The notes under the pieces: model-generated
The model's database searches: none
The model's input: only the letters and a program-made list of their open reading frames with translations
Told to the model about the DNA's origin: nothing
Virus record (IMG/VR): IMGVR_UViG_3300006802_000389
Coordinates: 1-28,796 of that record
Source of the DNA: a virus
Taxonomy: Duplodnaviria; Caudoviricetes
Reading direction: 5' to 3' (one strand)
DNA length: 28,796 bases
Shown here: positions 7,735-26,358 of the stretch, piece after piece
Layout of the letters: the number at the start of each line of letters is the position of its first letter
Position numbering within the stretch: the stretch's first letter is position 1
Made by a program: the position numbers and the translations under genes

Positions 7735-10431
7735 ATGGCAGGCGCTTCGATCGCCCTGGCACGCCGGCGAAGTGCTCAGCTGGCGGCGCAAGGGATCACC
7801 AAACCACCGGAGATCGTCGTCGAATCGCCGCATGTCCTGAAGGCGCGCGACAACTTCGGCTACTTCTGCGAGCTGATGGGCAAGCCGCCTGCCCGGCACA
7901 TGAAGGAATGGCATAAAGCTCTGGTTACGGGGCAGAGCAACGAGCACCTATCGGACGTAGCTGGCGCTAACACCGTGATCCTGAGCCCCAGGGGGCCATT
8001 GGATCCGGCGACCCCAGTCGCAACCCCGTCGGGCTGGCGAGCTCTGTCTGAGATTCGATCCGGTGATGCTGTCTACGCGGATGATGGCTCTGTAACTCGA
8101 GTCTTAGGGACTTGGGATTACCCGGAGACCGAGTGTTACGAAGTCACCTTTTCCGATGGGACAAAGGTTATTTGTGACGATAGTCATCGCTGGGACGTCA
8201 GGGCGTACGGTATCCGCGCAGAGGGTTGGCGGACTGTCACGCTTCAGGAGATAAGGTCATTCGTCCCTCTGCCTGGCAAGCCGCTCGCGAATGGTCAGCG
8301 CAGGGTGCGGCAAGCGCGTAATGGGGAGAGGCCGTGGATCGCCGGTCGGTCAAGGCCGCGCTACTGCGTGCCAATTGCTTCGCCTGCGGAGTATCCCGAG
8401 CAAAAGTTGCCGATCGACCCATACATTCTTGGAGTCCTGATTGGCGATGGATCCCTTGGGGACCCCGGGTTGGTTCGCTTTTTCAAGGATGAACCTGACA
8501 TGACGGATCGAGTGCAGAAGGCACTGCCCGACGCCTGTCGCTTGGTTGCGTTGTCTGGAAGGCGCGGAGATTGGATGATTGGGATCAAGCCTGAATATCA
8601 GGGCACTCGCGCTCGTAAGGGGCAGACGAATAACCCTGTCCTGCAAGCGCTGCGACTTCTAGGGCTCTCGGGTAAGGGTTCATGTGAGAAGTTCATCCCT
8701 CGGCAGTATCTGCATGGCTCTGTACGGCAGAGGGAAGCACTTTTGCAGGGGCTGATGGATACCGATGGTTGCGCGCGTCTTGGCTCGAGGCGATCTGGTG
8801 CGAGCTTCTCGACAACGTCGGAGCAGCTTCTGGAGGATGTCGCTGAACTGGTCAGGTCATTGGGAGGATTGGCAAAAATCAACGCCCCTCGGGAAGGCGG
8901 CTATACGTTGCCCAGTGGCGATCGCAAGCCGGCGCGGACGCTTTACGGGCTCAATGCCGTTCTGCCGCCTGGGGTAAGCCCGTTTTATATCGCTCGCAAG
9001 CGAGAACGCTATGGCACGGGCGAAGGCGCGCAGGGCGCTGGCGCGTTAGTAAGGGCGATTACAGACATCCGCTCGGTCGGTAGACGCCCTGTGCGGTGCA
9101 TCAGCATCGAGCATGAGAGCGAGCGCTTTATTGGTGGCTCTTATCTGAGCCTGAAGAATTCCGCAAAGTCGACAAGCGCAGCGCTGTTGCTGGCGTGGCT
9201 AATTGGCAGGCATGCGCTCTCAAGGAAACTGCTTCGAATTCTGTATGTCTCCTACAACCAGGACGTAGCCAGGGGCAAGAGTGCCGCGATCAAGCACCTG
9301 ATCTCTACCAAGGAATACCAGGAGATCTTCCCCTGCGTCAGGCTTTCAAAGGTCAGGACATCGGACGAGTTATGGAGTATCGACTGGGATTTTGCCGAAA
9401 TCGACGTCCGAGGTGAAGACGCGTTTACGATCGCGTGCGCAGGCCTCAAAGGTACGATCACGTCTAAGCGATCCAGCCTGGTTGTCGTGGACGATGCGAT
9501 CAAATCGTCGGCGAGTATCGCGAACCCACAGATTCGCGAGGAAATGACAAATAATTGGAATACGGTTATCGTCCCAACAATTTTCCAGGGCGGTCGCGTT
9601 ATCGCCCTGGGTACGCGCTTCCATTTCGACGACCTGTTCGCGACCACGTTTACCGAGCAGAAGGGCTGGAAGGTGATCACCCAGTCGGCGCTGAAGTACG
9701 ACGATGACGGCCGCCCGAAGTCCTACTGGCCGGAAATGTGGTCGACCAAGTACCTGCTCAAGCTGCAGCAGGACGACCGCATCGCCTTCTCGTACCAGTA
9801 CCTCAACCAGCCGGTGCGCTCCACCGAACTGGGGGTAAGCCCCGAGCTGTTCGTGCGCGGTGAAGTGCCCGACGTCTACGACATGGTCGGCGTTGGCATT
9901 GACCTCTCGGCGGGCATGAGCGAGCGCAACGACTGGACCGTGTTCACCCTGGCGGGGCGGGTCGATGACAAGTGCTATGTGATCGACTACCGGCGCATGC
10001 GCTCGATGGGCAACATCGAGAAGATCGAGGCCCTGTGCGAACTGCTGCTGGAGTGGAATCTGCTGGCGACCAATGAGCAGGGGCAGTATTTCCCGACCAA
10101 CTCACCGGTGACGATCTGGCCGGAGGTGGTGGCGTACCAGAAGAGCTTTGAGGGGGATCTCAAGCGGGTGCTGTTCAACGAGTGGGGCCTCTACAACCTC
10201 AATGTCTCGCCGGTCAAGGGATTCCGCGGTGACAAGCTGGCCAGGCTGCGCGGAATCTTGGGCCTGTTTCAGGCCAAGAAGATCATCTTCAACAAGTATC
10301 GCGACTTCAGTTGCATGATCAGCGAGATCACCAACTTCGGCCACAGCCCGCACGATGACTGTGCCGACAGCCTCAATATCGTGGTTCAAGGGCTCATGCG
10401 CCGCGGAGCCGCCCAGGTGGAGTGGACCTAA
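7735..10431 (+). CDS. terL: Terminase large subunit containing an intein (510 aa after splicing)
   Basis: Walker A rebuilt as ILSPRG|SAKST, Walker B VVVDD, LGTRFHFDD coupling motif, RNase H-like GIDLS...HDDCAD. Confidence 0.93.
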   Translation: MAGASIALARRRSAQLAAQGITKPPEIVVESPHVLKARDNFGYFCELMGKPPARHMKEWHKALVTGQSNEHLSDVAGANTVILSPRGPLDPATPVATPSGWRALSEIRSGDAVYADDGSVTRVLGTWDYPETECYEVTFSDGTKVICDDSHRWDVRAYGIRAEGWRTVTLQEIRSFVPLPGKPLANGQRRVRQARNGERPWIAGRSRPRYCVPIASPAEYPEQKLPIDPYILGVLIGDGSLGDPGLVRFFKDEPDMTDRVQKALPDACRLVALSGRRGDWMIGIKPEYQGTRARKGQTNNPVLQALRLLGLSGKGSCEKFIPRQYLHGSVRQREALLQGLMDTDGCARLGSRRSGASFSTTSEQLLEDVAELVRSLGGLAKINAPREGGYTLPSGDRKPARTLYGLNAVLPPGVSPFYIARKRERYGTGEGAQGAGALVRAITDIRSVGRRPVRCISIEHESERFIGGSYLSLKNSAKSTSAALLLAWLIGRHALSRKLLRILYVSYNQDVARGKSAAIKHLISTKEYQEIFPCVRLSKVRTSDELWSIDWDFAEIDVRGEDAFTIACAGLKGTITSKRSSLVVVDDAIKSSASIANPQIREEMTNNWNTVIVPTIFQGGRVIALGTRFHFDDLFATTFTEQKGWKVITQSALKYDDDGRPKSYWPEMWSTKYLLKLQQDDRIAFSYQYLNQPVRSTELGVSPELFVRGEVPDVYDMVGVGIDLSAGMSERNDWTVFTLAGRVDDKCYVIDYRRMRSMGNIEKIEALCELLLEWNLLATNEQGQYFPTNSPVTIWPEVVAYQKSFEGDLKRVLFNEWGLYNLNVSPVKGFRGDKLARLRGILGLFQAKKIIFNKYRDFSCMISEITNFGHSPHDDCADSLNIVVQGLMRRGAAQVEWT
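7996..9159 (+). mobile_element. Intein (388 aa, Pro1, class 3-like) with LAGLIDADG homing endonuclease
   Basis: Begins PLDPATPVATPSGW; block B CDDSHRW; ILGVLIGDG and LLQGLMDTDG motifs; block F VRCISI; ends LKN|S. Confidence 0.9.
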
Positions 10432-13590: not shown

Positions 13591-13905
13591 ATGCGTTTGG
13601 CCGGTAGCCCCGGGATCTACAATGCCCTGGCTCGGCAGTTCACCGGCCAGGGCATTCCTCGTGGCGCCGCGCAGCATCTCGCCGCGGAGGTGTTGGTCGA
13701 TGGGAATGCCATCGAGTCCCAGACTGACGCGTTCTTTGATCTGTACGAGCTGCTGCGCTCCAAGGGTTACAGCGACACGGCGGCCCAGCATGTAGCCGTG
13801 GAGATGATGGAAGGGCGCGAGCCCATGGCCCAGTCCACACGCCGCTTTGCGGGCATTTATGGCGACGCATCCCCAGACGCTGACGAGCGCGGCGTCTTTG
13901 ATTGA
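13591..13905 (+). CDS. Hypothetical protein with internal duplication (G....AAQH.A.E twice)
   Basis: TAGATT at 13563; GIPRGAAQHLAAE and GYSDTAAQHVAVE. Confidence 0.7.
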   Translation: MRLAGSPGIYNALARQFTGQGIPRGAAQHLAAEVLVDGNAIESQTDAFFDLYELLRSKGYSDTAAQHVAVEMMEGREPMAQSTRRFAGIYGDASPDADERGVFD

Positions 13906-15025
13906 GCGCTTCGAGGGGATTGAGGAGGAGGCCTACCTCGATCCGATCGGCGTACCAACGATCTGCGCGGGTATCACCCGCTATCCCAGCGGCGATCCCG
14001 TGCGGATGGGTGATGTCTGCGATGCACGGATCTGCCGCACGATGCTGGAGGACCTGCTGAGCAAGCAGTACATCCCCGTCCTGGAGACGATTCCGGGCTG
14101 GGGTGCATTCGGGGCCAGGCGCCAGGCGGTGCTGCTCAGCTTTGCCTGGAATCTGGGGGCCAAGTTCTATGGCGCGCCGGGCTTTGAAACCATCACGGGC
14201 GTGCTGCGCGACGGCGCGCGGCGGCCTGAGGTCTATCAGCAGATGGCCCAGGCCCTGGCGCTGTACGTCAAGGCGGGCGGCCGCACGCTGCCGGGCCTGG
14301 TGGAGCGCCGCCGCCAGGAAGCCGAACTCTGGAATCAGGAGGACAGCGGAACCATGAAATTCATCGCCCAGCAGGACACGCTGCTCAAGAAAGCCCCGAT
14401 TGATGGCCGCTACCTCTCAGAGGCCGGCAAGTACCCGATCAGCAAGGGCGCAATGCTGGCGGTCAGCCGGGTCGAGGAGATCCCCGCCGACAGCCATGTC
14501 TGGTTCACGCTCAACGGCGAGGGCGAGCGCTGGGCGGCGTACATGCCGCACTGGCTCGAGGAGCAAGCCAAGCCCGCCCCGCAGAAGCCGGCCAGTGTCA
14601 ACTGGAGCGACTTTGCCGCCCCGGCCGGCAAGTACATCACCGTTGGCGAGGTGCTGCAGTACGACGCGCGCCGCAAGCCCGCATCTGGCAGCGCGGAGGA
14701 GAAGGCCATCCTGGCGATCTGCAAGGAGTTCGACGCAATCCGCGAGGCCTGGTCGGGGCCGCTTGGTGTCACCAGCGGCTACCGGCCGGAGCCGATCAAT
14801 AGCCAGGTGGGCGGAGTGCCGGGCAGTTATCACGTCAAGGGGATGGCCCTGGACATCTACCCGATCGGTGAATCCCTGCAGAAATTCCACCAGTGGCTTG
14901 TGCAGCGCTGGAGCGGCGGCTATGGCGATGGCAGGCCCAAGGGGTTCATCCATATCGATACGCGCAACGGAGGTAAATTCTGCCCCCGCGCAGGCGTTTC
15001 TCCTGCAGCGGTTTGGGATTATTGA
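13859..15025 (+). CDS. Multidomain endolysin: GH24 lysozyme + linker domain + peptidase M15 (Zn D-Ala-D-Ala type)
   Basis: E-x8-D-x5-T (FEGIEEEAYLDPIGVPT), LPGLVERRRQEA; SGYRP, SYHVKGMALD, FIHID. Confidence 0.88.
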   Translation: MATHPQTLTSAASLIERFEGIEEEAYLDPIGVPTICAGITRYPSGDPVRMGDVCDARICRTMLEDLLSKQYIPVLETIPGWGAFGARRQAVLLSFAWNLGAKFYGAPGFETITGVLRDGARRPEVYQQMAQALALYVKAGGRTLPGLVERRRQEAELWNQEDSGTMKFIAQQDTLLKKAPIDGRYLSEAGKYPISKGAMLAVSRVEEIPADSHVWFTLNGEGERWAAYMPHWLEEQAKPAPQKPASVNWSDFAAPAGKYITVGEVLQYDARRKPASGSAEEKAILAICKEFDAIREAWSGPLGVTSGYRPEPINSQVGGVPGSYHVKGMALDIYPIGESLQKFHQWLVQRWSGGYGDGRPKGFIHIDTRNGGKFCPRAGVSPAAVWDY

Positions 15026-17269: not shown

Positions 17270-17866
17270 CTAGTTTACCGCCTGTGCAAATCTTGACAGC
17301 AATCGTCGCCGTTGCAGGTAGTGCAGGTGCGGTGCCGCGCTCTCCTTGAACCGACCGGAATCCATCGGGCCCAGGCGCACACGGCAGGGGGTGCCGTGGT
17401 TCCACCACAGCTTGGGCGAGAAGCCGCGATCCCGCAGCCACCCGTCATACAGGGACCACTCCTCGCCGGTGACTGCCCCGCCACTGAAGGCGATCCGGTG
17501 ACGGCTCCACTTGCCGACATCGCTCCACAACACCGCCAGAACCTGATCGCCCAGCAGGTCCAGCAGTTCAGGAGTCAGTTGGCGCTCGTCTCGCGGACAG
17601 AGCAGTTCATAGGCCCGGTACAGCCCCTCGCCATGAATGCGCAGGCGGTGTATGTCATAGAAGCCGTCGGAGGGCACCCGATCCCGGACCCACTCCAGAG
17701 GGCCATCGTGTAACTCCTGCAGGCAGCGCAATTGCCAGCTCAGTTCGCCGCGCTCGGTTTCCGGTCGACGGATCTCAAGCCAGGGGCGCTTCCGCGCTCC
17801 CTTGAGGCGAAGCGAGCCCTTCACCAAACTGAAGCTCAGTGCGCGCACTACGAATGGTGCTGACAT
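17270..17866 (-). CDS. Degenerate LAGLIDADG-fold protein
   Basis: Motif1-like ALSFSLVKGSL, LYRAYELL.P....LTPELLDLLGDQVLAVLWSDVG; parallels the neighbouring ORF and the intron 2 ORF. Confidence 0.6.
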   Translation of the reverse strand: MSAPFVVRALSFSLVKGSLRLKGARKRPWLEIRRPETERGELSWQLRCLQELHDGPLEWVRDRVPSDGFYDIHRLRIHGEGLYRAYELLCPRDERQLTPELLDLLGDQVLAVLWSDVGKWSRHRIAFSGGAVTGEEWSLYDGWLRDRGFSPKLWWNHGTPCRVRLGPMDSGRFKESAAPHLHYLQRRRLLSRFAQAVN

Positions 17867-18467
17867 CCCAGGATTCTTCGGTGAACAGATAACGGCGACT
17901 GAGGGGGGCGTAATCCAGCAGGGCGATGCGGATTTTGCGGGCCTCAGCATGCGAAAAGCGCAGGCGGGGGCGGACCCGCTCTGCGAACACTTCGGAGTGG
18001 GCGCCGGTCAGCGTGGCCAGCCACTGCTGCACCAAGGTCGCTTCGTGTTCATCACCGCCGACCCGCGTGAGCTCGACGGAGCCATCGCGGCAAACCCGGG
18101 CGCCCTCCGCCCAAAGCCACGCCGCTGCTCGCGCGCCCAGCATCTCCAGCGCCGTCGAAGTGATGCGCCGCTCACCGCCCGGGTAGAGCAGGTTGTAAAT
18201 CAGCCGCAGCTTGGTGGTCGAGACTCGAAAGCGCAGCACCAGGGTCGAGCGACCATTGGCGCGCGGAGTGGTCTTATAGGGAACAATTTGCGCCTCGGTC
18301 GGCAGAAACTGGCGAAATTCAGCGACCTTCTCCTCGAGAAACGCTGACTCCTTGGCGCCTGCTGTCAGGGTCAGTTGCACATACCCCCCGCTGGGACTGC
18401 GATATCGGACAAGACTGCCATCAGCCAGCAGTAAACCCAGCAGGCCGCGGACATCTGCGGCGTCCAA
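17775..18467 (-). CDS. Free-standing LAGLIDADG endonuclease-like protein
   Basis: LLGLLLADGSL, YNLLYPGGERRIT...LGARAAAWLWAEG; AGGGAG before the TTG start. Confidence 0.8.
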   Translation of the reverse strand: MDAADVRGLLGLLLADGSLVRYRSPSGGYVQLTLTAGAKESAFLEEKVAEFRQFLPTEAQIVPYKTTPRANGRSTLVLRFRVSTTKLRLIYNLLYPGGERRITSTALEMLGARAAAWLWAEGARVCRDGSVELTRVGGDEHEATLVQQWLATLTGAHSEVFAERVRPRLRFSHAEARKIRIALLDYAPLSRRYLFTEESWDVSTIRSARTELQFGEGLASPQGSAEAPLA

Positions 18468-18490
18468 AATTGCTCCCTATAAACTAACCC

Positions 18491-18497
18491 TATAGTA
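18491..18497. promoter_or_regulatory. Overlapping divergent -10 elements (TATAGT +, TACTAT -)
   Basis: Sits in the 90 nt gap between the LAGLIDADG start (-) and the capsid start (+). Confidence 0.5.
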
Positions 18498-18557
18498 AGC
18501 CCATGGAGGCGTTTCGCGCGCCTTCTCGCACCTCGACAATTTGGAGCGTTTCATCCC

Positions 18558-21500
18558 ATGTGGATTGATAACGGCTTATTGCCGGTAAGTCTCTCCGCGA
18601 AGGATCCGATAGACAGCTTTATGGTCGCACTTGAACCGAGCCGCGATCGCTCTGTATGAGAGACCGCTTTCTCGCAATCGACGCATGTCCTGGACCTGCT
18701 CACTGTTGAAGCGCTGCAAAGATGGCTTGGGCCGGCCTTTGCTGGCGTAACCATTGCGCGCGTACGCGCCTGCAGCCCACGCTCGGCGCAGATTTTCCTG
18801 TTTGGTCACAACCTCTAGGTTCTTAAGACGGTTATTCCGCTTATTGCCATCAATATGGTCGACCTGCAAGCTATCTGAGCTGCAGCCCGTTTCATCAAGA
18901 GTTAGCCCCAGGAATGTGATGGCCATAAGGACGTGAACATGCATGCGGCGCTTAGAGCAGTCGCAGGGCAGTGACACCCTGCAGTAAGTGCTGGATTGGC
19001 TGACCTTTAATTCTGTGACCCCAGCGTCTCCCTGGAGATAGACCCTGGCCGACTCGTCGATCAGGACTCCGGGAAAACCTGGCACTGGAACTGGTTTCAT
19101 GTTATCGGTCCACTAGCCGAAGATTACCGCATAAGCAATAGAGTTGTCACCTGGTCGGGTAACCGGCCAGTGAGAACCGGGTGAATTCAGGGAAGCCCTA
19201 ACGTCAAGGCGAGGGTAATCCTGAGCGAAGCCAGTCGAGCGCGACTGGAACGTGCAGAGACTACGTGGTGCAGCACGAACTTGCTGCGTAATACACGATT
19301 AGCGCCCGGCACCCAGGAATCTGGGTGAAGAGATAGTCCGATCCCATAAGAAATTGTGGAGTGATTGAACGATTTTCCGAAGCTGCTAGGTGCCGAGCTG
19401 TATCGACCCCATCCCTCGTACATCGTTGAGATGGCGGTCGAGCCCGTGGTTGTTCACGATTTCTCTAAGCAACCCGGACAGACAGTTCAGCTTGACCGTT
19501 AGCTAGCGATGGCGGTCATTAAACCCCGTGAATTGCTGGGACCCCGCCGCGGCGCCCGCCAGGGCGTACACTGGGCAATCAGCAGCCAAGCCGCTCCGAA
19601 ATGAGCGGAAGGTTCAACGACTACCGCTGTGACTGATCTCCCCCTCTTTACGCTTGCGTCCGTAGCCGGCGACGGGTGTCTGGGCATCCCTAAGGAGCGT
19701 CCAAACTCCGTCTACCTGAGTTTTACTCATTCGGCCAGGCAGCGTGAATATCTGGTTTACAAGGTTAACCGGATTAACGAGGAGCTGGGGACTAATGGAT
19801 CTGTTGGCCCCGCCAGGCCAGTGTTTGACAAGCGCACAAAAACAAGCGCAATGACATGCCAGGCGATGGTGGTCAATCCAGCGCTCAAGGGCCTCTACTC
19901 TCTTTTTTTATAGAAACGGAGAGAAAAGGTTCTCGAAGGAGGTCTTAGACCTCCTAGGGCTAGAGGCTCTAGCCTTGTTCTGGATGGATGACGGAAACGT
20001 AGGGAAGACCACTTCTGCTGTTAACAAAGGGATCCTGAATCTATACCGCCCTTTGGAGGAAGCCCTCCTTGTGCGGGACTGGATTTATTCGTTGACCAAT
20101 GTTGAAGCAAGACCCTACGAGGACAGGGGTTCATTTCGACTGAGAATACCGAGCTCATTGATGCCCGGGTTTCTAGCGAGAATACGACCCTATGTCCACT
20201 ACTCCATGGAATACAAAGTCACCCTAATGTTCTCGCATTACAACACGAAGAGTAAGCGGGAATACGAGGCGAGCCTGAACATCCCACTTGTGGATGAAGG
20301 CGATAAGGCGGCACGAGAGCGGGGCATTCCGGCCTAATAGGCCGGAATGATGAGATAGTCTGACCTTACGGAATGGCAAACCGTAAGAACCTGGAGATAA
20401 AGAGCTCCAGGGGTAACAACTGTATCGCTTCTGGGGTGCCCCTGGCACCAAAGATAGCCGTGAGCGGACTGCTGATCAGACCCTCGGCACTGCATCTTCG
20501 CGCAGTATTGTTAAGGACAAGGTCCTTGTTTCCCTTAAGGAATATACCGGACCCGCCGATCCTTCCGATACTGCAGCTCCGAGCACCTTCAAGGTTGCTC
20601 GCGAGACTCTGCTTACCGCCCAGCGACTTCTGCTGGACTCCGGTAATTTGAATGTCTTCCATCAATCGATTGGAAGTCTAACTCTGCTGGACGATTATCG
20701 TCGGTGGCGCGATCGCGTTTTCTCTGACGAACTGTTCAAGGCAGAGGCTAATGGCGCCGCTGACAGCACCAAGGGTGGTTACTATTACCCCCTGAAAAAG
20801 TCGAAGGCTGGCTCTGCCCCCTTCCTGACTTACGCTGCCGGCGAATCCGCCAAGTTTGATGTCAAGACCGACCTCCTTGAGGTGGTCAAAGACATGCGGA
20901 AGCGAAATGTTCCGACATTCGCTGACGGTTACTACCGTTGCATTGCGGATCCCACCGCAATGATGCACCTGCGCCAGAACGATGCGTTCCGTGAGATCGC
21001 TCGTTACGCCGGCAACGGCATGGTTAACCCCATGCAGCCGGAACTGGCACCCAATGCCAACTTCTTCCGTGGCATGGGTCCTGCTTACGGTCAGGCCGGC
21101 TTTGTTGCTGGTCAGCCCGTGATGCCTAAGCAAAATTGGGCCTGCGCGGCGCGAGTCGCGTAGCAAACAGGGTGAATTGCTGGAACCCCTCCATCGCACG
21201 GGGAATCAGCAGCCAAGCCGGGCCACAGCCCGGAAGGTTCAACGACTAGGTCCCGAGAGGAAACTCAGTAATGGACCCACGAGTGCCCTGCTACTCGCAC
21301 ATTGACAACCAAAGAGTTGTAACGAGTAGGTGAGATAGTCTGACCTCACGGGATGGTAAACCGTGAGAGCTAGGGGATAAAGAGCCCCTAGGATAACATG
21401 AGTGAGTGGCTTCCTCTTTGAAGGCGTGCGGTGGTTCGAAAGCACCAACCTCGCTGAGAAGAGCCTGCAGGTGACCATCACCGACGCGTCGATCACCTCG

Positions 21501-21698
21501 ACCGTCACCACTGCTGCTCCGATGCTGTTCTTCGGTCCTCAGGCCGTGGGCGTGGGCATCGGCGGCAACAACGCCCAGATCTTGCTGAACAACAACGACG
21601 ATTTTAGTCGTTTCATCATCATGATCTGGTCGCTCTTCGCCGGTTTCGAGATCCTGAACAAGGACTTCGTGACCGTCGCGTACTCCTTCGTTTACTGA
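18558..21698 (+). CDS. Major capsid protein, spliced: join(18558..18569,19368..19499,20423..21127,21405..21698), 380 aa
   Basis: Exons join in frame: MWID|NDFPKLLGAELYRPHP...GQTVQLDR|YRFWG...GQPVMP|SGFLFEGVRWFEST...FFGPQAVGVG; GGAG at 18543-18546. Confidence 0.88.
18576..19100 (-). CDS. HNH homing endonuclease with C-terminal HTH, antisense within intron 1
   Basis: VHVLMAITF...VDHIDGNKRNNRLKNLEVVTKQEN; GLSYRAIAARFKCDHKAVYRI. Confidence 0.9.
   Translation of the reverse strand: MKPVPVPGFPGVLIDESARVYLQGDAGVTELKVSQSSTYCRVSLPCDCSKRRMHVHVLMAITFLGLTLDETGCSSDSLQVDHIDGNKRNNRLKNLEVVTKQENLRRAWAAGAYARNGYASKGRPKPSLQRFNSEQVQDMRRLRESGLSYRAIAARFKCDHKAVYRILRGETYRQ
19121..19150 (-). promoter_or_regulatory. 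Putative sigma70-type promoter for the antisense HNH gene
   Basis: Minus strand GTGACA-18 nt-TAATCT, 20 nt upstream of ATG 19100. Confidence 0.5.
19500..20422 (+). ncRNA. Group I intron 2 (923 nt)
   Basis: P1 GACCGU/GCGGUC with U.G; P10 GCGAUG/UAUCGC; GTGAATTGCTGG, AATCAGCAGCCAAG, GTTCAACGACTA, GAGATAGTCTGA; terminal G. Confidence 0.92.
19629..20337 (+). pseudogene. Intron-encoded LAGLIDADG endonuclease with +1 frameshift at T7 (19903-19909)
   Basis: LASVAGDGCL...FTHS..QREYL.YK in one frame and YRNGEKRF...LALFWMDDG in the next; removing one T gives a 235 aa ORF. Confidence 0.8.
21128..21404 (+). ncRNA. Group I intron 3 (277 nt, no ORF)
   Basis: P1 GCCU/GGGC with U.G; same core motifs as intron 2; P3 CAGGGTG/TGCCCTG; terminal G. 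Confidence 0.92.
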
Positions 21699-21714
21699 TA
21701 GGAGGTAACGAATC

Positions 21715-22353
21715 ATGGCGAAGAAGATCTACCCCGGCAACTACATCGATCGCCCTAGTTCTTACCAGAACCAGTGCGTGGTGTGCCTGCCCGGCCGGGT
21801 GTACTACCACATCACTGGCTATGCCCTGGTGGATTCCACTGGCGGTACCGCCTTTGACGTGATCATCCCGTCGCCCGACCTACGTGGCGACGACAAGCCC
21901 CGCGCCAACATCACCGGCCTGGTGCTGCCCTCTGGTGCGAACGTGTACATGCTCGGCATTCGCGTGCCGGACATGCGCAAGGATCGCAGCATTGGCACCG
22001 CTACCACGGGCCTGGTTGGAACCAATACCAACCGCCTGAAGCTGGCTGATGCCCTGGCCAACGATGACGTCTTGACCACGACGACCCTCTCCACGACCTC
22101 TTCGGCTGTGGCGGTGGCAAGTGGCACGATCGCCCCCGTGGCGAACGTCAAGAGCGTTGTCACCCCGGTGACCCTGGCTGGTAGCGAGACCCTGCGGGTT
22201 TACGTGACCAACAGCACCGGTACTGCGGCAGGTTCCACCCTGAGCTCGACTCAGACCGGTGGCACCCCGATCCTGGTGGAAGTGGCCTACTACGTCGACG
22301 ACGTGGTGGCCGAACTGCAGGATCTGCCGCTGCCTTACAACAAGGAGAACTGA
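21715..22353 (+). CDS. Probable capsid decoration / minor structural protein
   Basis: AGGAGG RBS, Thr-rich beta protein directly after the capsid gene and before the terminator. Confidence 0.7.
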   Translation: MAKKIYPGNYIDRPSSYQNQCVVCLPGRVYYHITGYALVDSTGGTAFDVIIPSPDLRGDDKPRANITGLVLPSGANVYMLGIRVPDMRKDRSIGTATTGLVGTNTNRLKLADALANDDVLTTTTLSTTSSAVAVASGTIAPVANVKSVVTPVTLAGSETLRVYVTNSTGTAAGSTLSSTQTGGTPILVEVAYYVDDVVAELQDLPLPYNKEN

Positions 22354-22392
22354 TCGCCCTTGCGGTGATCGACAGGGTTCTCCCTACAATAA

Positions 22393-22422
22393 GGGCGTCT
22401 GCTTGGTCAGGCGCCCTTTTTT
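22393..22422 (+). terminator. Rho-independent terminator
   Basis: GGGCGTCTG-cttggt-CAGGCGCCC followed by T6. Confidence 0.85.
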
Positions 22423-22430
22423 ATTGCGTT

Positions 22431-22862
22431 ATGGCGCTGTATCAGAACACGAGGAACGGCCAGATCGTCGAGTTCATTGCTCACCACGACAAGGACTGGG
22501 CAATGATCAAGAATTCCGCTGGCGCGATCCAGTACATCGCACTGGCCGACTTGGTGTCCTATGAGCCCGGCAAAGGTCGCACTGGCGAGACGCCTCAGCC
22601 GCAGTCGGCCGAGAGTCCGGTGGACGAGGACGCCATTCCAGAAGCCGCGATTCCGGTGGACACCCGCCTGAACATCAATACGGCCTCAGCAGAGGCAATT
22701 GCCAAGGCCGTTAAAGGAATCGGCTACAGCACTGCCAAGAAGATTGTTGAGCTGCGCTTGAGCCTCTCGGGCGAGCGCTTCAGCAATCTGGATCAGCTCA
22801 AGCGAATCGGCCGCGTCGATTGGGACGAGGTGATCGCAGCTGATCTGATCTACGTCGGCTGA
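22431..22862 (+). CDS. Helix-hairpin-helix (ComEA-like) DNA-binding domain protein
   Basis: RLNINTASAEAIAKAVKGIGYSTAKKIVELR...FSNLDQLKRI. Confidence 0.85.
   Translation: MALYQNTRNGQIVEFIAHHDKDWAMIKNSAGAIQYIALADLVSYEPGKGRTGETPQPQSAESPVDEDAIPEAAIPVDTRLNINTASAEAIAKAVKGIGYSTAKKIVELRLSLSGERFSNLDQLKRIGRVDWDEVIAADLIYVG

Positions 22863-25524: not shown

Positions 25525-26357
<833 letters not shown>

Positions 26358-26358
<1 letters not shown>

Follow-up and report, generated by a model that had tools for sequence, protein, structure and literature searches.

How a phage can interrupt the gene of its major capsid protein three times and still make the full subunit, and why such interruptions persist, are the questions raised by a locus of an uncultured freshwater phage, the IMG/VR record IMGVR_UViG_3300006802_000389. 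The window, i.e., the whole stretch of 28,796 nt that was analysed and to whose positions all coordinates refer, carries at 18558-21698 a gene which a preliminary description, made from the letters alone, had read as a major capsid gene split by three group I introns behind a first exon of only four codons. Alignment of homologues, the predicted fold and joined RNA all support this split gene. Our reading, to which a probability of roughly 0.8 is assigned, is that it belongs to an S-EIV1-like phage, likely a cyanophage, whose three group I introns are removed, likely by self-splicing, and likely persist as selfish homing elements and not as a regulatory device.

Exons, junctions and identity of the product

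The gene lies on the plus strand and consists of exon 1 (18558-18569, 12 nt), exon 2 (19368-19499, 132 nt), exon 3 (20423-21127, 705 nt), and exon 4 (21405-21698, 294 nt including the stop codon). Joined, they encode 380 amino acids followed by a single terminal stop, with no stop inside; the phase-0 exons and the product of the preliminary description were exact to the letter. Between them lie intron 1 (18570-19367, 798 nt), intron 2 (19500-20422, 923 nt), and intron 3 (21128-21404, 277 nt, without open reading frame, ORF) at insertion sites referred to as 4, 48, and 283, respectively. They make up 1998 of the 3141 nt, in line with the earlier estimate of about 2.0 of 3.1 kb. All three are in phase 0, preceded by an exon U and terminated by a G. 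The junctions of introns 1, 2, and 3 can be slid by 4, 2, and 1 nt without any change of the mRNA, but in each case U and G stand at both splice ends only at the unslid position, which rules out the alternative positions. Unspliced RNA would meet a stop after 33 codons in intron 1, immediately in intron 2, the first in-frame codon of which is a stop, and after 11 extra codons in intron 3; thus, the full 380-aa subunit needs all three splicing events. Early in-frame stops in introns have been read as helping intron folding (PMC3984707). By sequence reading, a Shine-Dalgarno-like GGAG (18543-18546, plus strand) stands 11 nt 5' of the start codon, and a similar purine motif occurs at a comparable distance in most uninterrupted homologues. 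No sigma-70 promoter match was found within 18300-22500.

The identity of the product was approached by homology, fold and gene position. Exon 3 found a single match among 50,697 annotated phage records, namely Synechococcus phage S-EIV1 with 68% identity. Among 81 homologous loci, 65 align in one piece from residue 1, and none of these 65 has a gap at any of the three junctions; the contiguous alignment with intronless homologues, which had been proposed as a check, was therefore obtained throughout. In 56 of the 65, the first ten residues are identical to those of the joined protein. Exon 3 matches the major head protein family phrog_1357, as does an intronless homologue with 97% identity (L003; E 2.6e-20). 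An earlier structure model (pLDDT 52) gave weak Foldseek matches only; the final model, calculated for L003 from a deeper alignment (pLDDT 79), matches HK97-type capsid proteins, the best being that of cyanophage P-SCSP1u (E 5.7e-13). A Pfam scan and a sequence search of the PDB with the capsid protein gave no match. Upstream of the gene are a terminase and a virion structural gene, as in a head module. Profile, fold of the homologue's model and gene position together identify the product as a predicted HK97-fold major capsid protein. The phage is S-EIV1-like and likely a cyanophage, a cyanobacterial host being suggested by the kinship with S-EIV1 only. In S-EIV1 itself (KJ410740; L001, 14857-15987), the annotation of the uninterrupted capsid gene consists of a hypothetical ORF on the opposite strand and a fragment of the C-terminal part. 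The S-EIV1-like capsid gene is missed by marker surveys because it is split by introns in many genomes and misannotated even in this intronless one. Twelve further matches in GTDB (L280-L291) sit in bins assigned to unrelated groups (archaea, Bacteroidetes, Planctomycetes) and are probably mis-binned; one of them stems from a Prochlorococcus single-cell assembly, and no host is named by these matches.

Removal of the introns from RNA and their ribozyme cores

The three introns are removed from RNA in nature. Metatranscriptome data were available as assembled contigs from four of five listed runs (X1-X4; four studies), and exact joins, the detection of which had likewise been proposed as a check, occur in contigs of X1, X2, and X4, which stem from three studies. 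For intron 2, a contig of X1 joins 19499 to 20423 over 132 + 105 letters without mismatch, and a contig of X2 (record 8) holds exon 2 without mismatch, its loose ends matching the final 10 letters of exon 1 on one side and the beginning of exon 3 on the other, so that it also represents the join across intron 1. Intron 3 is absent from a contig of X1 joining 21127 to 21405, with 20 letters on the short side, and from one of X4, with 77 letters on the short side and no mismatch over the 139 listed. Pieces of introns 1 and 2 also occur in X1, whereas X3 contains intron pieces only. A further joined contig of X4 (record 19) differs at 12 positions and stems from another allele. Neither exon skipping nor intron circles appear among the RNA contig joints listed, although contigs drop rare forms. 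There is no RNA cover at 18300-18559, which is uninformative.

Each of the three introns bears the marks of a group I ribozyme. In the whole window, the Rfam model RF00028 has three matches, all inside the capsid gene (intron 1: 84.1 bits, E 2.7e-20; intron 2: 31.7 bits, E 1.3e-4; intron 3: 49.5 bits, E 6.3e-10), of which only intron 1 exceeds the gathering score of 50 bits, the ORF-split intron 2 and intron 3 remaining below. Exon U, terminal G, U.G pair and P3/P4/P7 cores, all stated in the preliminary description, which had proposed such a model search as a check, were found for all three. In introns 1 and 2, the Rfam alignment shows the P3/P7 pseudoknot together with P4, P6, P8, P9 and the G-C guanosine site in P7. 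P1 with its U.G pair is local in introns 2 (19494-19501 with 19510-19517, from a pairing search) and 3, but long-range in intron 1, where the guide at 19143-19149, found by duplex search, closes it over about 570 nt. According to the Rfam alignment, P7 is formed by 19259-19263 with 19334-19338 in intron 1 and by 19619-19623 with 20356-20360 in intron 2; in intron 3, covariation over 35 introns places P3 at 21168-21174 with 21284-21290 and P7 at 21244-21248 with 21336-21340 (all on the plus strand). P10 is strong only in intron 2 (7 bp), compared to -4.9 kcal/mol with mismatches in intron 1 and about 3 bp by reading in intron 3. The P3 of intron 2 contains a bulged A, again by reading, and the fold of intron 3 has a z of -4.5.

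The core of intron 3 was compared over 35 of the 42 short introns from relatives' capsid genes, near-duplicates being dropped and the structure drawn by hand. Its positions are paired in 95% of cases, with two-sided changes at 31 of 45 pairs; slid controls reached 29-46% and none of 500 shuffles was as high, though relatedness of the sequences alone can beat such shuffles. Pairing amounts to 99% in P3, 99.5% in P4, and 100% in both P6 and P7, the G-C pair of the guanosine site in P7 is invariant (35/35), and P3, P4, and P7 show compensated variation between different insertion sites. A U.G pair at P1 was recovered in 17/17 distinct site-4 introns when the guide search was limited to the 75 nt before P3; in an unrestricted search, the exon U paired with G in 50 of 72 introns only, alternative partners winning in the long site-4 introns. 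For the three insertions, the exon ends in U in 21/21, 11/11, and 9/9 carriers compared to 70/113, 42/127, and 37/125 non-carriers, the mapper having mildly favoured U and G. All three introns contain an insert of 33-44 nt between P7 and P3, the extra helix of which is 89% paired in the short-intron set, with two-sided changes in 4/4 pairs. We take the extra helices P7.1/P7.2 at this place to be the mark of class IA, and on these sequence features all three can be classed as IA-type group I introns. P7.1/P7.2 are named as class features in the literature (PMC3984707). By established group I chemistry, each intron would fold, bind guanosine at the G-C pair of P7 and be cleaved behind the exon U that forms the U.G pair of P1; the exons would then be ligated at the intron-terminal G.

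Spread of the introns and the reasons for their persistence

The distribution of introns was mapped across relatives with a spliced aligner, which was run on the 64 loci that did not align in one piece and gave a small bonus for U and G, so that the U/G rule is partly built in for relatives. From 172 loci, 138 distinct alleles remained after the window's own loci, L054 (false start), and L067 (frameshift) were dropped. No intron is present in 92 alleles, one in 23, two in 11, three in 6, four in 5, and five in 1 (L090), giving 46 carriers in a set which is enriched for introns because 15 loci were fetched by their HNH gene; in less biased scans, 9/78 and 33/77 capsid loci bear introns. The 1.14-kb gene offers at least 22 insertion sites (23 if 6+0 and 6+1 differ). 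Six alleles with three to five introns (L231, L090, L210, L206, L181, and L191) have internal exons as short as 23 nt (in L231), 33 nt, and 38 nt. Of 76 distinct introns, 42 are short and devoid of a nuclease ORF, and sites 4, 48, and 283 were each seen empty, nuclease-bearing, and nuclease-free. Over ten hand-picked whole records (six with and four without capsid introns; seven at least 90% complete, S-EIV1 being counted complete), all 11 matches of RF00028 lie inside the capsid gene, with none in the four intron-free records.

The insertion sites occupy conserved parts of the gene (amino-acid conservation 0.945 vs. 0.880, p 0.003; U-weighted permutation p 0.004; p 0.003-0.009 over all tests), as is known of group I introns (PMC2814812). 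Moreover, the capsid protein is the most conserved of nine proteins common to four genomes (76%, compared to 65% for terminase and 58% for portal). That introns collect in this gene may be due to its being the most conserved of the shared genes, in which nuclease targets would persist throughout the lineage.

Two homing-endonuclease genes, which the preliminary description had not mentioned, lie in introns 1 and 2. That of intron 1 (18576-19100, minus strand) is located antisense in the P1 loop and encodes an HNH protein of 174 aa with a C-terminal helix-turn-helix (PF13392, E 1.8e-12; PHROG HNH, E 1.6e-25; a weak match to PDB 1u3e, E 0.011). Its 15 closest relatives, the best 80 loci being kept, all reside within site-4 capsid introns. 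The LAGLIDADG gene of intron 2 (19629-20337, plus strand) starts within the ribozyme core and loops out of P8; by reading, the 3' strand of P3 includes the codon for the first acidic residue of its motif. All seven relatives found sit at site 48. In the window contig, this gene is broken by a +1 frameshift in a T run (19903-19909), which has seven T compared to six in the sister contigs L002 and L087; RNA contigs of X1 and of X3 likewise have six. As the gene is whole in both sisters (the L002 copy having 235 aa; PF03161, E 2.8e-14) and the extra T is absent from the RNA, either a recent loss or a slip of the assembly may account for the break. Judged by their sequences, introns 1 and 2 thus encode putative homing endonucleases that are each confined to one insertion site. 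At site 283, where the window's intron 3 carries no ORF, L181 and L195 have a 1.1-kb nuclease-bearing intron. A second kind of antisense intron ORF, of about 280-350 codons, was observed in L004, L090, L181, L195, L200, L223, and L231 (sites 139, 144, 283, and 290), with a LAGLIDADG-like motif and an N-terminal helix-turn-helix-like part by reading.

Movement of the introns is indicated by their distribution and by one close pair. Intron 1 of the window and its counterpart in L088 differ at 3 of 798 nt and have identical flanks of 50 and 20 nt, while the 300 nt upstream contain 69 differences. This is the pattern expected of recent homing with co-conversion and would fit it, part of the identical flank being common to other site-4 carriers. 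On a FastTree phylogeny of 131 exon sequences, which has no bootstrap and in which recombination is likely, at least 11 changes are needed for 17 carriers at site 4, at least 4 for 8 at site 48, and at least 5 for 8 at site 283 (L066 left out of the count). Close sisters also differ in intron content, as in L241 vs. L242 and L078 vs. L079. In mixed infections, an intron nuclease would cut the intron-free allele at its own site, repair would copy the intron in, and after the spread the nuclease gene would decay; the window would then display three stages of this homing cycle with an intact HNH gene, a frameshifted LAGLIDADG gene, and no nuclease. The selfish introns would be tolerated because they are spliced.

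Several points weigh against this reading. The RNA evidence consists of assembled contigs without strand or matched DNA, the intron-1 join comprises 10 letters of one contig and the intron-3 join of X1 only 20, and an intronless allele with identical exons could conceivably have supplied the joined RNA in those waters. Splicing may also be aided by protein helpers. Conservation alone accounts neither for the absence of group I introns from terminase and portal (58-65%) across the tested records nor for the placement of the 22 sites, 12 of which lie within the first 90 codons and 15 in phase 0. The lack of strand and matched DNA in the RNA data, together with the other allele in record 19 of X4 and the possible assembly slip in intron 2, could be taken to mean that the capsid gene is dead or mis-assembled and the joined RNA derived from an intronless relative. 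This is very improbable: two independent contigs share the same three introns with exons 99.9% identical, the exons are free of stops and frameshifts, and X1 also holds pieces of introns 1 and 2. The joined contigs show 0 differences, compared to 23 in 237 letters for the best intronless allele among the 138, which is identical to the X1 exon 2-exon 3 join at 214 positions. All four metagenome DNA contigs with an exact 60-nt stretch of exon 2 carry introns, one of them probably being the window's own record.

The preliminary description had suggested that splicing could gate capsid production, and the introns could be kept as such a gate or timer, sensing GTP or translation. A complete subunit requires the removal of all three, all 11 intron matches in the ten records lie in this gene, and an on-switch hypothesis for phage introns has been discussed (excerpt of PMC11878797). 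In addition, the 5' splice site of intron 1 is 12 nt from the start codon and hence inside the expected footprint of an initiating ribosome. A local hairpin at 18556-18602, with a pair probability of about 0.75, and a helix of 13 bp between 18560-18572, i.e., exon 1 with the 5' splice site, and the complementary stretch 19101-19113 (plus strand) can bury start codon and splice site, the helix being a possible competitor whose strength was matched by 0 of 300 shuffles. Nevertheless, this helix is kept only in L002, L088, and L089 and is missing from the 10 more distant of 13 HNH-bearing site-4 introns, and it could just as well be left over from the target of the nuclease itself or result from the ribosome-binding site of the nuclease gene. 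With 92 of 138 alleles intron-free, near-identical sisters differing in introns, 22 interchangeable sites, and the spread explained without benefit by nuclease genes and a co-conversion-like tract, the gate is unsupported and appears highly unlikely. A narrower proposal, distinctly unlikely as well, is that S-EIV1-like genomes collect group I introns in the capsid gene alone and that the 13-bp helix of this sub-clade locks exon 1, which would render translation initiation and the first splicing step mutually exclusive and turn a selfish intron into a capsid-synthesis switch. Alternatively, the nucleases could be kept as weapons of interference competition that damage the capsid gene of intron-free relatives during co-infection, homing being a by-product. 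The target is essential and highly conserved, the HNH gene is intact and there is precedent in phage PhiPA3 (excerpt of PMC11878797), but 42 of the 76 distinct introns lack a nuclease ORF and introns have been copied into divergent alleles, as in homing; we consider this explanation unlikely. Selfish homing of spliced introns remains the preferred reading.

Neighbouring genes, known systems and significance

Divergent from the capsid gene, two overlapping LAGLIDADG-like genes (17270-18467, minus strand) start 91 nt away from it. The pair occurs at 36-72% identity across relatives of one large sub-clade, both those with and those without introns, and is absent from S-EIV1 and others. The first gene is 27% identical to the nuclease of intron 2; in the second, reading of the sequence shows no acidic motif of the usual kind, and PF03161 is matched only at E 0.12. 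A role as maturases or mobilisers was rejected: among loci of the first scan with at least 900 nt upstream, 35 intronless ones have the first gene and 18 lack it, compared to 7 and 1, respectively, of the intron-bearing ones, and it is absent from the five-intron L090. The pair looks domesticated and is perhaps a DNA-binding regulator of the late promoter. Elsewhere in the window, the large terminase subunit (7735-10431) contains an intein-like insert with a LAGLIDADG domain, a fused lysozyme and peptidase M15 endolysin (13847-15025) lies between scaffold-like and capsid genes, and an AAC-rich low-complexity run (about 25560-25690) forms a poly-Asn tract in an ORF of 277 aa (25525-26358).

The rarity of capsid introns implied at the outset was overstated, for capsid-gene introns and phage genes with three introns have been published. 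Mycobacteriophage LittleE has an RT-PCR-verified major capsid intron of about 820 nt with an antisense endonuclease ORF (Pope et al., 2013, PMC3706429). According to the excerpt, it resembles the introns of the window in its exon U, terminal G, opposite-strand nuclease, and splicing in vivo, but is a single intron called only likely group I, in contrast to the three introns, 12-nt first exon, and lineage of at least 22 sites described here. A capsid-gene intron of the lactococcal phage Tuc2009 is cited in the same paper. In the crAss-like Zeta-group genome OLRF01000054, a cMAG, the capsid ORF lies in five fragments with intron-type domains in 3 of 4 gaps (Yutin et al., 2021, PMC7886860); as far as excerpted, however, introns of Zeta genomes occur in many genes (up to 14), unlike the capsid-restricted matches of the ten S-EIV1-like records, and neither splice sites nor RNA data are given for them. 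Three group I introns per gene, as in the window, are reported for orf142 of Twort and for polymerase and terminase genes of Bastillevirinae (excerpt of PMC11878797), mostly of types IA2/IA3 and often with nucleases. Of these genes, orf142 (tail tube) is structural, but none is a capsid gene; the hosts are Firmicutes, and exon skipping was seen there, compared to none among the joints listed for the window. The psbA introns of cyanophages S-PM2 and S-CBWM1 (excerpts of PMC8557907 and PMC3706429) likewise are nuclease-associated group I introns of a conserved cyanophage gene, but interrupt a photosynthesis gene of T4-like phages instead of the capsid gene of S-EIV1-like ones. No paper on capsid introns in S-EIV1-like phages was found in a literature search that was thin on subscription journals. 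What is added here is RNA evidence for a three-intron allele and a map of a single-gene hotspot.

For this widespread aquatic lineage, the practical consequence is that gene callers fragment the capsid gene in a sizeable share of genomes, as reflected in the frequencies of the less biased scans. One short gene with so many sites, in empty, nuclease-bearing, and nuclease-free states, allows the homing cycle to be tested in natural populations and also bears on the question why introns pile up in one gene. The lineage is a source of new IA ribozymes and site-specific nucleases, dozens in all. Finally, it illustrates that a structural protein of very high abundance can be made in spite of three to five splicing steps and of a splice site under the initiating ribosome.

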